This document shows positions 43,506-50,740 of a stretch of DNA of 64,000 nucleotides, in pieces. Every line of letters starts with the position of its first letter. Position 1 is the first letter of the stretch. The notes beneath the pieces are model-generated. The model had not been told where the DNA came from. It made no database searches and saw nothing but the letters and a program-made list of their open reading frames with translations. Origin of the DNA: a virus; UHGV virus genome UHGV-0312702. One strand, written 5' to 3'. The position numbers and the translations under genes are program-made.

Positions 43506-44201
43506 TCAATGTTTAACTAACATGGTTTTGATGTGTGGAAGGATTCTGTTAACCTTCTGCACATTCTTCTCTGTATCTTCTATAAAACATACTATATCAA
43601 AGTAAGGCAGAATGCAAGACTGAATCATCCGTACTTTCAAACTTTCTGCACTTATAGAGTTAGTTCCAAAACCACGCATAAAAAGCATGTAGTCATGCTC
43701 TGTGTTATGCCTTAAAAACATCTCAGTAGGTATTCTCTGAGATTCACCCCTTGCTGTCAAGAGTCCAATGGCAGCATGATTAGCAATTGCATCAATAATA
43801 TTGAAAACATACGTTGGTTTTGCTCTTACAGAGTCAAGAAGGTTAGTATACTGTGAAAATGACCCATCAGTCAATTCCGTTGAGCAATCTTCGTGATTAA
43901 AATTTGTAAGAACACCATCAATATCTGCCAAGATAAGGTTGCCTTTCTCCACAAGGTCTTTATTGACTATGACTAAACTATCACGCCTTACACCTATAGT
44001 TTGTCCAGTCTCTTTGTCCATAACGTTCACAATTGGTTCTGATGTGTGGAACTCTTCAAGTGAACATACAACCTCTCTTGCAGTATCTTCAAAGTCTCTA
44101 CACTGCTCTGGAGTCCATATGCCAGAATCAATACCTAACTCATGAGGATGCAAGTCATAAGCATGGCACAGTACTTCATCAGACTTTCTTAATTTTTTCA
44201 T
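43506..44201 (-). CDS. HAD-superfamily phosphatase-like protein, 231 aa
   Basis: HAD motif I LILADIDGVLTNF (DxDGV/T) in the middle of the protein. Confidence 0.45.
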   Translation of the reverse strand: MKKLRKSDEVLCHAYDLHPHELGIDSGIWTPEQCRDFEDTAREVVCSLEEFHTSEPIVNVMDKETGQTIGVRRDSLVIVNKDLVEKGNLILADIDGVLTNFNHEDCSTELTDGSFSQYTNLLDSVRAKPTYVFNIIDAIANHAAIGLLTARGESQRIPTEMFLRHNTEHDYMLFMRGFGTNSISAESLKVRMIQSCILPYFDIVCFIEDTEKNVQKVNRILPHIKTMLVKH

Positions 44202-44727
44202 GGTTTACCTTAGAAATGTTTGTTGCAAATTCACATTGAGCAATAACTTTCATGTTGTTATAGACATCTTGAGAATATTTCTTAGCTTTAGGAATTTTGT
44301 ATGAATACCCAGCATTATAAGATGCTAAAACTTTTTGTAAAGTCTTCTTTGACTTTGGCTGGCCATGTACCTTCGTCCAAAACTCAAGCTCTTTATGTGT
44401 TTCTTTTGCGGCATAATCAAAGTCTTTTAAAAGTTTCTTTTTAGCCACATTAGGACTAATTTTGTTACGCTTTACAACAGTCTTCAAGTGATTCTGGAAA
44501 ATACCATAGTCATGTGTCTTTTTATTCTCTACCTTCAGACCTAACTCTGACTCTTGTAAGGCTATAGCAGCTAGAGTGATACCCCAACCTTTACCCATAT
44601 TATTCTCACCATACTGGTAAGCTTTTAACATGTTTACTTTTTGGCTAATTGATAGCTCTGGGCAGTCAACTGCATAAGATAAGTGTGCTGTAAACATTAA
44701 GCACAAACCTAGAATCAATTTCTTCAT
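44179..44727 (-). CDS. secreted lytic transglycosylase (SLT family), 182 aa
   Basis: Signal peptide MKKLILGLCLMFTAHLSYA; catalytic-region motif AIALQESELG ... YGIFQ. Confidence 0.6.
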   Translation of the reverse strand: MKKLILGLCLMFTAHLSYAVDCPELSISQKVNMLKAYQYGENNMGKGWGITLAAIALQESELGLKVENKKTHDYGIFQNHLKTVVKRNKISPNVAKKKLLKDFDYAAKETHKELEFWTKVHGQPKSKKTLQKVLASYNAGYSYKIPKAKKYSQDVYNNMKVIAQCEFATNISKVNHEKIKKV

Positions 44728-46016: not shown

Positions 46017-48383
46017 TTAATCGTAAATTGTAGTCCCTTCTGGAACACACTTCACATCAAAGCCTAAGAACTTACTCACTTCGATAGGTGACACTTTATT
46101 CCAATCTAAATGAGAAAGCAAGAAGTTTTCTTGTTTTCTTTTTGAAAGATAGTTTGTCACCTTAATGACCATACGGTCACCAGCTTTCTTAATTTTCTTG
46201 TACAGCTTTGTGTCGTTGTCAAGGCATTCTTTCAAAGTTTGTAATCTACTAACAGTGTAAGTGTATGCAAACGGTGCAGCAACGTATTGGATTTTACCGA
46301 ACATTGCCTCAACAGCATCCTCATTACCTTCTAAGAAGATAGTTTTGTTTGTATCCCGTGAATAACAATAGCCACGAGAAATCTTCCTGTTATTGAACGT
46401 AAAGTTTCTGGCAATAATCCAACTGCTTGTAAGGTCGAGGACACCATTCATATAGATACGTGTCATATACCTGTTATGATTAATCCAATGAACATCAGTT
46501 AAGCTGTCGTTCAAGAGCTTCTCATCTACTTCAATCCAGTCTTCTGGTATCTTTTTCCAATTTGCTTTTCGGAAAACATATACTGTCTTTCCAATGACAT
46601 TGGCAACTGACTTAGCTACATCTTCTGGAGATGAGCAAAAACATTCGCCATCAACTGTGTCGCCTACTGCCTTAATATAAAGCTGAGGCTCTTCAATCGT
46701 ATCTAAGTCTTCTGACACCTCTTTGTATGAAGCTACACCTTCTGCTGGAACAGCTTTCCAGAGTTTTACAACACCTCTTACAGCTTCTTTACGCTGATAA
46801 TGGTGTTCCTTATCAGACATCTTCACAATCTTTAACAAGCTTTTATCAAGTTTGTGTAGATTGATTAAGTCATCTAACTCTTTTTCAGTCGAGAATACAA
46901 ACACAATACCATTGTATCTGTGAAACAGACTTGACTCACTGGCATAGTCTCGACATGCACCACGCAAGATTTGGTTGCGTCCTACAGTCTTCTCAGTACC
47001 GTTCTTATTGCGACGGTCATTAATAACAAACAAAAACTGTTCAATTTGGCTTTTACGCATTGCACCAAAGATATTGAACATACTTGCCTCTTGAGTGTAG
47101 GAAAGTGCTGTTGCACGAATCTTACTCTCTAAAGAGTTGAACTTGACATAAGCAACTGGGTCATAAAGGTAATCTACTTTAGGTATGTTGTTTCCTTTGC
47201 TGTCAACCTTAATATTACCTTTACCATCACGTTCATAAATGACTGAGCCGTCTTCTGCGTAGATAATCCCACGACGAATGTTTAGTAATTCTTCTTCCAG
47301 AGAATCAAGCTTAACACCACCCCACTCTAGCTTTGGACACACAGCATTAAACATCTCTCGTGAGTTCAAACGTAACTCAGCATAAGCCTGTGCAGCATCC
47401 ATGAGTGTAGGTTGGTTATTAACACCCTTAATAACGTCCCTTGTGATTGCTTCAGTTATCTTTTTAGTAGCCTCGATGATAACATTTTTTGTCGTGTCAT
47501 TCATCTGCAATGCTTCACGAGAAGCTGCAATAGCAACTGAACCAATAGGCATGTAGATGTTTACAAGGTCTACGCTCCTACGGAAAAATTCTGGCAAGAC
47601 TTTGAAGAAATCATCGCCAAGTAACGCTTCCATGTTAACTGGATAGGCAATATTACCCATCACCACATTAAACTCTGTCCTGTTATCGCTAGAGCGCCAA
47701 CTTAGCTTATGAATCATGGCATCATAAACACCCTCTTCACGAGCAATGACGTTCATATCTGCTAATACATCGTCGTACACAATATTACTTTCTGGTTTTA
47801 CAGCAAAGTATGAGTATACATTACCAGCTTCTTCAAAGAACTTTGAGATACGATGGTCAGCAACTGCTACACGTACAGCTAAACCATTAGGCTCTTTTGT
47901 TGGGTTAGTTGTTAGCTTGGTTACTTGAGGAATACCATTCTCAAGATAAACAGAGTATTTATTAACAACACCATCAACGTAGCTCGATACTGTGAATGAC
48001 TGAGCAATTGCAAACGGTGACTTTGAACCGATACCCATTGCACCAATGTAGTCATTAGAGTCATTCTTTGTAGAAGCCCCGTAGTTTAGATACAAACTCA
48101 TAACTTTATCATGAGTCAATCCAGTTCCAAAATCACGAACTTCAAAGTAAGGCTCAAAACGAGTAGGTAAATGCACATGGAACGGGATGTTCTCTTTTCC
48201 AGCTTCTTTCTGAGCATCTACTGCGTTACATGACAGTTCACGAATAACTGCCCTTTCTTTAAATGTATATACACCAGAACTCAAAAGGCTGAACATTTCA
48301 GGTGTCATTGTAATCTGTGCTTGAGACGTCTCTAAAGAAGTTGAACTTTTAATCACTTCTGCGTGGTCGTTTACCATGCGCAT
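46017..48383 (-). CDS. rIIA: rIIA-like protein with N-terminal GHKL-type ATPase fold, 788 aa
   Basis: N-box/G-box motifs (RELSCNAVDA ... RDFGTGL ... IGAMGIGSKSPF) in the order seen in T4 rIIA. Confidence 0.8.
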   Translation of the reverse strand: MRMVNDHAEVIKSSTSLETSQAQITMTPEMFSLLSSGVYTFKERAVIRELSCNAVDAQKEAGKENIPFHVHLPTRFEPYFEVRDFGTGLTHDKVMSLYLNYGASTKNDSNDYIGAMGIGSKSPFAIAQSFTVSSYVDGVVNKYSVYLENGIPQVTKLTTNPTKEPNGLAVRVAVADHRISKFFEEAGNVYSYFAVKPESNIVYDDVLADMNVIAREEGVYDAMIHKLSWRSSDNRTEFNVVMGNIAYPVNMEALLGDDFFKVLPEFFRRSVDLVNIYMPIGSVAIAASREALQMNDTTKNVIIEATKKITEAITRDVIKGVNNQPTLMDAAQAYAELRLNSREMFNAVCPKLEWGGVKLDSLEEELLNIRRGIIYAEDGSVIYERDGKGNIKVDSKGNNIPKVDYLYDPVAYVKFNSLESKIRATALSYTQEASMFNIFGAMRKSQIEQFLFVINDRRNKNGTEKTVGRNQILRGACRDYASESSLFHRYNGIVFVFSTEKELDDLINLHKLDKSLLKIVKMSDKEHHYQRKEAVRGVVKLWKAVPAEGVASYKEVSEDLDTIEEPQLYIKAVGDTVDGECFCSSPEDVAKSVANVIGKTVYVFRKANWKKIPEDWIEVDEKLLNDSLTDVHWINHNRYMTRIYMNGVLDLTSSWIIARNFTFNNRKISRGYCYSRDTNKTIFLEGNEDAVEAMFGKIQYVAAPFAYTYTVSRLQTLKECLDNDTKLYKKIKKAGDRMVIKVTNYLSKRKQENFLLSHLDWNKVSPIEVSKFLGFDVKCVPEGTTIYD

Positions 48384-48411
48384 AATACTTTCCTCTTAGT
48401 TTACTGTTAAA

Positions 48412-48588
48412 TTACTTGTTAAACATTTTACCAGAACCGCCACACATAGGGCAACAACCTGCTCTTGTATACCCTTCTCCGCTACAGTAGTCACACTTTT
48501 TGTGTTCTGCAAAGTACTTACAAAGAAGGCAAACAAATATTGCTACACTACCAAGTGACAGTAAAATTTCTATCCAATATGCTTGCAT
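48412..48588 (-). CDS. unlisted small membrane-anchored zinc-ribbon protein, 58 aa
   Basis: Hand translation MQAYWIEILLSLGSVAIFVCLLCKYFAEHKKCDYCSGEGYTRAGCCPMCGGSGKMFNK; GAGAGGTGA RBS upstream; below the 60-aa cut-off of the ORF track. Confidence 0.4.
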   Translation of the reverse strand: MQAYWIEILLSLGSVAIFVCLLCKYFAEHKKCDYCSGEGYTRAGCCPMCGGSGKMFNK

Positions 48589-48905
48589 GACTCACCTCTC
48601 ATGTTTTTGTAAAGGATAAAGCTTCTGTCATGAACGATACTTGTAGATACTGCAAAGTTACTTTCAAGCATCTGTTTGTTTGGATTGTAGAAGCTTTCTT
48701 TAAACTCGTCAAGAGCAAACTGGTGATGTTGTGGAAGACCTTTTACACAAACCTTTATTGTGATTGCTGCTGCAACCTTGCCAGCCAGTTCTTCTTTAGC
48801 TGCTACTAAAATTTTGTTAAGGAACTTATGACCATCTTCAGGCTTTTTGATGTTCTCCCAACGTTCTTCTAAGACAATGTTGATGTTCATTTCTTTGATT
48901 TTCAT
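48570..48905 (-). CDS. hypothetical protein, 111 aa
   Basis: ORF. Confidence 0.45.
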   Translation of the reverse strand: MKIKEMNINIVLEERWENIKKPEDGHKFLNKILVAAKEELAGKVAAAITIKVCVKGLPQHHQFALDEFKESFYNPNKQMLESNFAVSTSIVHDRSFILYKNMRGESCKHIG

Positions 48906-48917
48906 AGTCTTCTCCAG

Positions 48918-48946
48918 AAATTAAAAAGGCTCCCGTAGGAGCCTCT
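48918..48946 (-). terminator. terminator-like hairpin between the Nampt-like gene and the next gene
   Basis: AGGCTCC-CGTA-GGAGCCT; on - strand followed by TTTTTAATTT. Confidence 0.5.
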
Positions 48947-48958
48947 TATCATATACTT

Positions 48959-50740
48959 TTAAAGCTGCTTGTCAATATTATTTCGAATATCACCAAGAGA
49001 TGTGTAACCATACTGCTCAGAATCACTAAAGACTAAGCGTAGAGCACAAGCTGGATGTTCAAGTGCATCTGCAAAGCTTTGGAATCCATAGCCATCTACA
49101 GCTTTCAGTTTATCACCATCCCACATAGGTGCTACACCACCAAAAGCAGACTTCTTAACACCACTATCTGTTTTAGGGTCTTTTGCAAGCATAATCTCTT
49201 TACCACCAATGCTTGCAAGAGTTGCTTTAACAGCAAATGCAAAGGTGTCACGAGTCATGTACTGGTAAGTGTAAGAGCCTACGCCAAACACTACGTTAGA
49301 GCTTGCAAAACCCATTTCATACAGACGCTTCAGGATTTCGTTTGCACGTTCCAGTGTGATAGAGTCACCATAGATAAGGCCAATATGTTCATCCAGTACC
49401 TTAAAACCTTTGGAGTTGATAGTCCCTCCGAAGATGTTATACAGAGTCTTAATAGCTCCATCAATCTCTGCTACAGGACGTGTTACAACGTTTGCAGAAC
49501 CAACCATATAAGCATTTTTCAACATCACTGTATCGGCAACTTCAAAGTCTTCTCGGTCAACAACCATTTCGTAGCCTTCTGACAGTAGCCATCCAGCAAT
49601 ACCATAGCTGATGTTTTCAAGCTTCATATTCAGAACAGCATTTAACATTGTGTCGCTGGCTTCCAGCTTACTAAGGTGCTCATAATAAGCCTTTTTAGCG
49701 CACTCTAAGTGGATTGCTTTATAACCTGTGACAATATGTACAGGGTCTCCAGAGTCAGGACGAATTACCAGTTTACCGTCACGTTCCATAATCTCTTTGC
49801 GAAGTGCTGGTAAGATTTCTGACACAGTTCTCCAGAAGTTATAAGTATCTGAAACAACACTTGCAATACCAGTCGGGTAAGTCTCTGTTAAGAAACGACG
49901 GAAGGTCTGCAACTCACCTTTAAAGCGTCTTTCCTCTTCAATCAATTCATTACCACCTTCCCAAGCAATGTTTGCACACATTACAGAGTGTTCAGTGGCT
50001 GGTACAGAACCACCAATATCAGAGATTGGGTAAGACTGTCCGTAGATGCGTTTAGCTGTATATACAGCAGGGAAGCTATCAGTTCCTTTAAAGCTGGTCA
50101 AGTGGCCTACAGCATTAAATGCGTCATCAGTAAAGCCTGACATACCACGCATAGCAAAGTCATGGCACTGATAAGGTAAATGCAAGTCATTGTCACAAGT
50201 AAGGTCAGCCCACTTCTTACAGATACGTTTGTAGTGCAATGCAATAGTTGCAATGGTACAAGCCTTCCAAATTTCAGCAGAGAAAGAATCTTCCAGATAC
50301 CCCGCTACCCAATGGAAGCCTGAAACAGTATTCTGGAAGACAATCATTGGGACACGCATAGGGACAACTGTGCCTTCTTCTACAGCGTATACTTCAACTG
50401 GCAGATAACCTAAGTCGTGAAGTGCTTCCCAATGTTCTCGACCAATAGCATCTTTACCCAGAACACCGTTCATGACTTCTAAGATTTCGTCAATTGCTTC
50501 TTTTTTGTCACGCTCAAAGAAAGTGGCGTTCCAATGGTCTACCAAGTAATCTTTAACAAAGCGTTGAATACCAAAAGCTACTACACCGTCAATTGCTAAG
50601 GGGCTGTTAAACCATTTGTCACTACGTGGTGTCAGGTTGAACATCAAGTACTCTGTTGCGCTAGGATACTGGTAAACATGACCAGATTTGTAAGCATCTG
50701 CATTCAAACCTGCTGGTACTGCATAAAGTGATTTAGTCAT
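48959..50740 (-). CDS. nadV: nicotinamide phosphoribosyltransferase-family protein (Nampt/NadV-like, or the Nampt-homologous Namat), 593 aa
   Basis: Length and overall similarity to Nampt-family proteins from memory; paired with a Prs-like gene immediately upstream. Confidence 0.7.
   Translation of the reverse strand: MTKSLYAVPAGLNADAYKSGHVYQYPSATEYLMFNLTPRSDKWFNSPLAIDGVVAFGIQRFVKDYLVDHWNATFFERDKKEAIDEILEVMNGVLGKDAIGREHWEALHDLGYLPVEVYAVEEGTVVPMRVPMIVFQNTVSGFHWVAGYLEDSFSAEIWKACTIATIALHYKRICKKWADLTCDNDLHLPYQCHDFAMRGMSGFTDDAFNAVGHLTSFKGTDSFPAVYTAKRIYGQSYPISDIGGSVPATEHSVMCANIAWEGGNELIEEERRFKGELQTFRRFLTETYPTGIASVVSDTYNFWRTVSEILPALRKEIMERDGKLVIRPDSGDPVHIVTGYKAIHLECAKKAYYEHLSKLEASDTMLNAVLNMKLENISYGIAGWLLSEGYEMVVDREDFEVADTVMLKNAYMVGSANVVTRPVAEIDGAIKTLYNIFGGTINSKGFKVLDEHIGLIYGDSITLERANEILKRLYEMGFASSNVVFGVGSYTYQYMTRDTFAFAVKATLASIGGKEIMLAKDPKTDSGVKKSAFGGVAPMWDGDKLKAVDGYGFQSFADALEHPACALRLVFSDSEQYGYTSLGDIRNNIDKQL

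Follow-up and report, generated by a model that had tools for sequence, protein, structure and literature searches.

The cysteine-rich domain of DnaJ (PF00684; 1EXK) is built from CxxCxGxG motifs, four of which make up two zinc centres, and it sits in a protein that also has a J domain, a G/F region and C-terminal substrate-binding domains. Disulfide isomerase or oxidoreductase activity has been ascribed to DnaJ zinc centres, as well as to plant CYO1-type zinc-finger proteins, in references cited in PMC5915565. DnaJ-type knuckles also occur in J-less proteins, among them anti-TRAP, FIP, OR and BSD2. Anti-TRAP (RtpA) of Bacillus subtilis (2bx9, PF15777, NF058604) is a soluble, oligomeric bacterial protein of ~53 aa which, according to the names of PDB entries, inhibits TRAP through direct binding. 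The Arabidopsis protein FIP has a membrane anchor and two CxxCxGxG motifs, has no J domain, and binds the membrane protease FtsH5 (PMC5915565), and OR has been described as a regulator of its client, phytoene synthase (PMC5915565).

In Felix O1-like phages, a small protein with the same pair of motifs is already on record as p243 of Felix O1 (NP_945023.1, 'hypothetical membrane protein') and as PHROG 3931. The gene described here, ORF58, is the orthologue of both: its residues 1-58 align with profile positions 1-59 of 59 of PHROG 3931 (E=6.3e-32), and it has the same length as the Felix O1 gene and the same place between a 111-aa ORF and rIIA, with no material difference between the two. A gene in a comparable position next to rIIA, T4 rIIA.1, was considered as a positional analogue and rejected, as its 67-aa product has no hydrophobic helix and no cysteines and is unrelated in sequence.

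A catalogued small gene upstream of rIIA

The window, by which we mean the whole 64,000-nt stretch of phage DNA analysed, is Felixounavirus DNA: the 651 bp around ORF58 share 95-98% identity with numerous genomes of this genus, which comprises Felix O1-like myoviruses infecting Escherichia and Salmonella. The original prediction had proposed an unlisted 58-aa ORF with a strong ribosome-binding site between rIIA and a Nampt-like gene. The proposed interval coincides exactly, stop included, with an ORF on the minus strand (Table 1) whose translation is MQAYWIEILLSLGSVAIFVCLLCKYFAEHKKCDYCSGEGYTRAGCCPMCGGSGKMFNK, and the start signal is indeed a canonical Shine-Dalgarno sequence, GAGAGGTGA, which lies within the 3' end of the 111-aa ORF and whose GAGG core ends 6 nt ahead of the ORF58 ATG. 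The proposed placement holds on the rIIA side but not on the side of nadV (the Nampt-like gene), where the 111-aa ORF (ORF111) intervenes. Similarly, the gene is unlisted with respect to the 60-aa ORF track but is no novelty, many GenBank relatives having it annotated.

Table 1. Positions of ORF58, its sequence elements and its neighbours in the window
Feature	Position	Strand	Basis or remark
rIIA	46017..48383	minus	Starts 28 nt downstream of ORF58; downstream neighbour across Ounavirinae
ORF58 CDS, 58 aa	48412..48588, stop included	minus	ORF listing; PHROG 3931 match; annotated in KhF1 and UAB_Phi87
Single Cys4 DnaJ-type knuckle, CxxCxGxG-x6-C-CxxCxGxG-K	48427..48495, codons 32-54	minus	Invariance; 1EXK profile match
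Predicted transmembrane helix, WIEILLSLGSVAIFVCLLC	48520..48576, codons 5-23	minus	KD19; AlphaFold2; family hydrophobicity
ORF111 (PHROG 4262, 111 aa)	48570..48905	minus	Between ORF58 and nadV
Shine-Dalgarno of ORF58, GAGAGGTGA	48592..48600	minus	Read from sequence
Terminator-like hairpin	48947..48924	minus	Consensus scan; directly after promoter; 10-bp, GC-rich, T-run
Sigma-70-like promoter, TTGACA-16-TATGAT	48975..48948	minus	Consensus scan; overlaps last nadV codons

ORF58 is thus an ordinary, already catalogued small phage gene, and it belongs to a family without assigned function. Relatives carry it either as 'putative membrane protein, similar to Felix O1 p243 / NP_945023.1' or as 'hypothetical protein'; in the genome paper of UAB_Phi87 its counterpart is ORF 64, of 58 aa (PMC4837284), and the ASO1B record leaves the counterpart uncalled. 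Two records name a homologue 'chaperone protein' or 'heat shock protein', a choice presumably prompted by the resemblance of the motif to DnaJ. The case illustrates how inconsistent the annotation of this small gene is among deposited genomes. A search of the literature for Felixounavirus transcriptomics, for gene essentiality (HIDEN-SEQ) or for ORF58 itself returned nothing usable.

ORF58 is a conserved protein-coding gene

ORF58 belongs to a Felix O1-like phage and is a genuine protein-coding, conserved gene. When 11 distinct Felixounavirus alleles are compared, the variable sites are distributed over codon positions 1, 2 and 3 as 6, 7 and 21, and the pooled pairwise pN/pS in the ORF58 frame is 0.11, a ratio which shows that the gene is under purifying selection. 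In four of the five other frames of the region the ratio is 1.0-2.2. The fifth, an antisense frame, gives 0.13; we rejected this antisense reading, as its low ratio comes from wobble positions shared with the sense frame. Stop codons interrupt all three plus-strand frames across ORF58.

The protein is 87-98% identical both across Felixounavirus and to those of 215 phage records, and homologues can be followed through Mooglevirus (~53% identity), Suspvirus (~43%) and the RB49-like T4-like phages of the genus Krischvirus (~40%) to Kolesnikvirus (Erwinia), Yersinia phage P778 and Pectobacterium phage Wc4-1 (~25-30%). The open frame and the motif are retained down to this last level of identity in every Ounavirinae lineage examined, and also in Krischvirus, and an SD-like GGAG or GAGG lies 6-10 nt ahead of the start of the homologues in Moogle, Suspvirus, P778, Wc4-1, M7 and ECD7. 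The original prediction had been staked on conservation of the reading frame in relatives and on a translation signal; both are present there, and ORF58 is therefore coding.

These data also bear on the opposite reading, in which ORF58 would be a spurious ORF within a non-coding spacer or regulatory region and would carry its motif by chance. The ORF is short, several deposited genomes (e.g. ASO1B) omit it, and a few database entries (P0003, P0005 and P0006) contain frameshifts, all of which a spurious ORF would accommodate. It would not accommodate the pN/pS of 0.11 with its excess of third-position changes, nor the preservation of frame, SD and eight Cys/Gly positions to ~25-30% identity in two phage families, nor the two copies of CxxCxGxG in the window, when shuffled windows contain a mean of 0.15. 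As read from these alignments, the conservation pattern effectively refutes a spurious ORF, which we find scarcely credible.

The frameshifted proteins mentioned above (P0003, from phage phiWec177, P0005 and P0006) correspond to positions 48396-48536 of the minus strand, in the +1 frame relative to ORF58. These versions end in ...IQEQVVALCVAVLVKCLISNLTVN, and one of the frameshifts is located at the A5 run of codons 29-31, in CACAAAAAG. Such rare frameshifts may be sequencing errors or genuine loss-of-function alleles. A separate peculiarity of the database concerns three records assigned to phages of other hosts, GU169904.1 (Staphylococcus phage SA1), MG065664.1 and MG065668.1 (Campylobacter phages A132 and A126, respectively), which contain 96-97% identical Felixounavirus sequence at this locus, an indication that the assemblies are contaminated or chimeric or that the hosts were wrongly assigned.

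The C-terminal part of ORF58 carries one putative DnaJ-type zinc knuckle

An N-terminal hydrophobic helix followed by a cysteine-based zinc module, called a zinc ribbon, had been predicted for the ORF58 product. Both parts can be recognized, the helix as a Kyte-Doolittle peak (see below) and the module as the two motifs CDYCSGEG and CPMCGGSG, which lie within 27 residues after the helix and are the only CxxCxGxG matches in a six-frame translation of the 64-kb window. The Cys4 character of the module is confirmed, and it is more precisely named a DnaJ-type CxxCxGxG pair. Across 17 diverse aligned homologues, nine columns are invariant (M1, C32, C35, G37, G39, C46, C49, G51 and G53), and the family pattern consists of one CxxCxGxG, a spacer of 6-7 residues and a second CxxCxGxG, after which K54 comes next in most members. 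A fifth cysteine, C45, forms a CC doublet in most of the 17 members and is replaced by L, V, I or P in several.

When the family profile was compared with known structures, it matched the cysteine-rich domain of E. coli DnaJ (1EXK) with E=7e-8, each half being aligned separately, and human DNAJA3 with E=1.5e-4; the match to anti-TRAP (2bx9) was weak (E=0.028). Scanned singly against Pfam and NCBIfam, none of the 17 members reached a curated cut-off. There were sub-threshold matches to PF00684 in 15 of them (best member E=3.3e-5), to the DnaJ equivalog model in all 17, and to the RtpA (anti-TRAP) model and likewise DUF5351 in 16; ORF58 itself scored 13.1 bits against PF00684, for which the gathering threshold is 32.7. 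Scores of this kind are to be expected because the family has half of the domain, with two motifs and one zinc centre as opposed to the four and two of DnaJ. There was no match to a J domain (HPD) in ORF58 with either Pfam or NCBIfam, and its zinc region alone aligns to the DnaJ models.

Judged by motif and profile, the ORF58 pair bears the hallmark of a single zinc centre of the kind found in the DnaJ cysteine-rich domain, and we infer that one Zn2+ is bound through C32, C35, C46 and C49. The module would work like the DnaJ cysteine-rich domain, but ORF58 is not a member of that family nor of the DnaJ/Hsp40 type I proteins, whose J domain, G/F region and C-terminal substrate-binding domains it lacks, and it is predicted to be membrane-anchored. 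It also falls outside the anti-TRAP family, for which all scores lie below the cut-offs, and in contrast to soluble anti-TRAP it has a transmembrane helix. FIP, once its transit peptide has been removed, has an architecture like that of ORF58, a hydrophobic anchor and then a C4 zinc finger; however, FIP and CYO1 are eukaryotic plastid proteins, larger and equipped with a transit peptide, and their likeness to ORF58 is architectural only.

A profile search of 1.84 billion proteins returned 2079 matches, the majority being DnaJ-like proteins or proteins with multiple CxxCxGxG repeats, of which some have signal peptides. The full ORF58-type architecture was confined to very few of these matches, proteins 52-60 aa in length. 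Five IMG/VR loci (L018-L022) were considered as carrying orthologues and rejected, the match being confined to the zinc motif. In one of them (L018, 3092-4234), an unrelated protein of 380 aa ends in a double CxxCxGxG knuckle (CTACEGSGKTTKGKTCPICGGSGK), demonstrating that this module is mobile and has been fused to different phage proteins.

A predicted transmembrane helix and its orientation

Over residues 5-23 of ORF58 the 19-residue Kyte-Doolittle mean is 2.32, which clearly exceeds the customary transmembrane threshold of 1.6, and an AlphaFold2 model of the protein has a helix at residues 3-28. A hydrophobic segment with 17-residue means of 2.1-3.2 is present in each of the 11 family members examined. 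The helix motif MQxYW[IL]E[IL] is common to three genera, and E7 and S11 are conserved in at least 90% of a 13-sequence alignment, a pattern that hints that the helix may be more than a passive anchor.

In 10 of the 11 members, Lys and Arg are missing from the one to seven residues that precede the helix, and Glu or Asp is often found there; the exception is Wc4-1, whose sole Lys before the motif, K4, lies inside the segment scored as transmembrane. After the helix there are 2-6 Lys or Arg residues in the members examined, and in ORF58 every Lys and Arg is C-terminal of the helix. By the positive-inside rule, the K/R-free N-terminal tail therefore favours an N-out/C-in orientation, with the tail probably periplasmic and the Cys4 knuckle probably on the cytoplasmic face of the inner membrane. 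The cytoplasm is reducing, and zinc coordination is expected there. Given the signal peptides of some bacterial multi-repeat CxxCxGxG proteins, the motif alone cannot prove a cytoplasmic location.

Two conserved gene neighbourhoods

Within ~4 kb of ORF58 lie prsA, nadV, ORF111, rIIA and rIIB, and no endolysin gene is adjacent. ORF111, which has no Pfam match, overlaps the start of ORF58 with its last 19 nt, and the identical 19-nt overlap is found in Moogle and mistaenkt; the two genes overlap in Felixounavirus, Mooglevirus and Suspvirus, and ORF111 is absent from P778 and Wc4-1. A consensus scan detected no terminator-like site among ORF111, ORF58 and rIIA, and the sigma-70-like promoter upstream of them is also annotated in phage ASO1B. 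Promoter upstream and no terminator inside, the three genes are therefore likely to be one unit, probably a sigma-70-driven early transcription unit to go by these scans.

In the space ahead of this unit, a candidate terminator for nadV and the near-consensus candidate promoter for ORF111-ORF58-rIIA are apparently packed into ~50 nt, and hairpin tails of a similar kind, 'CCTTTTT', are also seen ahead of the small gene in P778 and Wc4-1 (loci L006 and L025). Two further observations concern the flanks of the region. Between prsA and nadV, Moogle (L003, 594-1085) and ASO1B (L026, 202-693) carry an HNH homing endonuclease gene that is absent from the window, KhF1 and UAB_Phi87; the NAD-salvage cluster thus contains a mobile element that is polymorphic, present in some genomes and missing from others. 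Downstream of rIIB, positions 44179-44727 of the minus strand encode a 182-aa ORF without a Pfam match that has a signal-peptide-like start (MKKLILGLCLMFTAHLSYAVDC, KD 1.64), and its product may be a secreted protein or lipoprotein.

The small gene is located immediately upstream of rIIA in KhF1, UAB_Phi87, Moogle, mistaenkt, P778, M7 and Wc4-1. Its distance from nadV is variable, with no ORF in between in P778 and Wc4-1, one in Felixounavirus and Suspvirus and two in Moogle and M7. A spacer of 58-74 nt, with promoter-like or hairpin sequences inside, separates it from rIIA in Moogle, Suspvirus and M7. The second neighbourhood is that of Krischvirus (ECD7, RB49, JSE and Phi1), in which the homologue is part of the nrd cluster and shares 11 nt with the 3' end of nrdH, the glutaredoxin gene; the nrdH overlap is also seen in a more divergent metagenomic relative, the arrangement being conserved at ~47% protein identity (L005, 2736-3153, ECD7; L027, 4742-5177). 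Because the Krischvirus homologue lies away from rIIA and because of the promoter-like and hairpin sequences in the spacers, the adjacency to rIIA may mostly reflect inherited collinearity of Ounavirinae genomes.

Possible roles of the ORF58 protein

The explanation that best accounts for the data overall, to which we assign a probability of about one half, is that ORF58 is a coding early gene whose product combines a transmembrane helix with a zinc knuckle and serves as a membrane-tethered adaptor or inhibitor. According to this proposal, ORF58 would be produced early in infection from the sigma-70-driven unit, its helix would span the inner membrane, and the Cys4 knuckle, holding one Zn2+, would face the cytoplasm. 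The knuckle would be a protein-binding module, as in the J-less proteins anti-TRAP, FIP, OR and BSD2, with which ORF58 could seize a partner at the inner membrane. The two leading candidates for this partner would be RIIA/RIIB, suggested by the synteny in Ounavirinae, and a host inner-membrane protein such as FtsH, suggested by analogy with FIP. The occurrence of the family in two unrelated groups of enterobacterial phages, in different neighbourhoods, slightly favours a host target, and a role as regulator or inhibitor of host machinery, as had originally been suggested for small proteins of this type, is plausible by analogy with anti-TRAP and FIP. The more specific proposals, namely that ORF58 is a third RII component that tethers RIIA/RIIB via its knuckle or a FIP-like modulator of FtsH, are speculative, and we would not expect either to be correct.

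The same features can be read in other ways. ORF58 might serve the RIIA/RIIB complex as a dedicated anchor in the membrane or as an assembly factor, the knuckle holding RIIA or RIIB at the inner membrane. RIIA and RIIB of the window phage have no predicted transmembrane segment (the KD19 maximum of RIIA is 1.29), yet they are membrane-associated according to annotations of relatives and the literature, and rIIA is immediately downstream in every Ounavirinae lineage examined, with genes further upstream being variable; in the window, the two genes are separated by only 28 nt with no terminator-like site between them. However, synteny within one collinear subfamily is weak evidence, the Krischvirus homologue resides beside nrdH and not rIIA, and in T4, the model phage for RII, the position upstream of rIIA is not occupied by a homologue, so that we consider a dedicated RII anchor unlikely. 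It is precisely the Krischvirus arrangement that could instead point to a redox mini-protein, in which the knuckle would serve at the membrane in thiol-disulfide oxidoreduction or redox sensing and would not be a static zinc site. The 11-nt overlap with nrdH is kept at ~47% protein identity in Krischvirus-like phages, most members have the additional C45, and oxidoreductase activity of DnaJ-type zinc centres is described in references cited in PMC5915565. On the other hand, the Ounavirinae copy is not adjacent to a phage glutaredoxin or nrd gene, C45 is not invariant, and the protein has no thioredoxin fold, all of which makes a redox function rather improbable.

Finally, a small protein with one transmembrane helix and a Lys-rich C-terminus, encoded beside a gene annotated as 'lysis inhibitor' (rIIA) in phages that have no recognised holin gene next to the lysin, as is the case for Felix O1-like phages, could be a component of lysis timing, i.e. 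a holin, antiholin or lysis-inhibition factor. We regard this as very improbable. ORF58 is located among early metabolic genes (prsA, nadV and rII) behind a sigma-70-like promoter with no endolysin gene adjoining, and Krischvirus keeps the homologue in its nrd cluster. Krischvirus is a T4-like (Straboviridae) genus and is expected to have lysis genes of its own. As far as we are aware, no known holin is characterized by an invariant Cys4/Gly4 zinc motif. Of the properties by which a holin might be recognized, the transmembrane helix is present; a lysis-gene neighbourhood and late expression do not emerge from the gene context.

Implications

For a family that has until now been filed as hypothetical membrane proteins, the analysis adds an architecture, one DnaJ-type zinc knuckle, likely facing the cytoplasm, on a membrane anchor, and a distribution that takes in every Ounavirinae lineage examined as well as the RB49-like phages, in two conserved neighbourhoods. 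The mechanism of RIIA/RIIB is still poorly understood, and Felixounaviruses find wide use both in biocontrol and in phage therapy. Were ORF58 to prove an RII tether or a modulator of FtsH, it would offer a first molecular handle on the use of a J-less DnaJ-type knuckle by a phage; if it were found to tether RIIA/RIIB or to inhibit a membrane protein of the host, it would be a compact and genetically tractable mini-protein effector of these phages.
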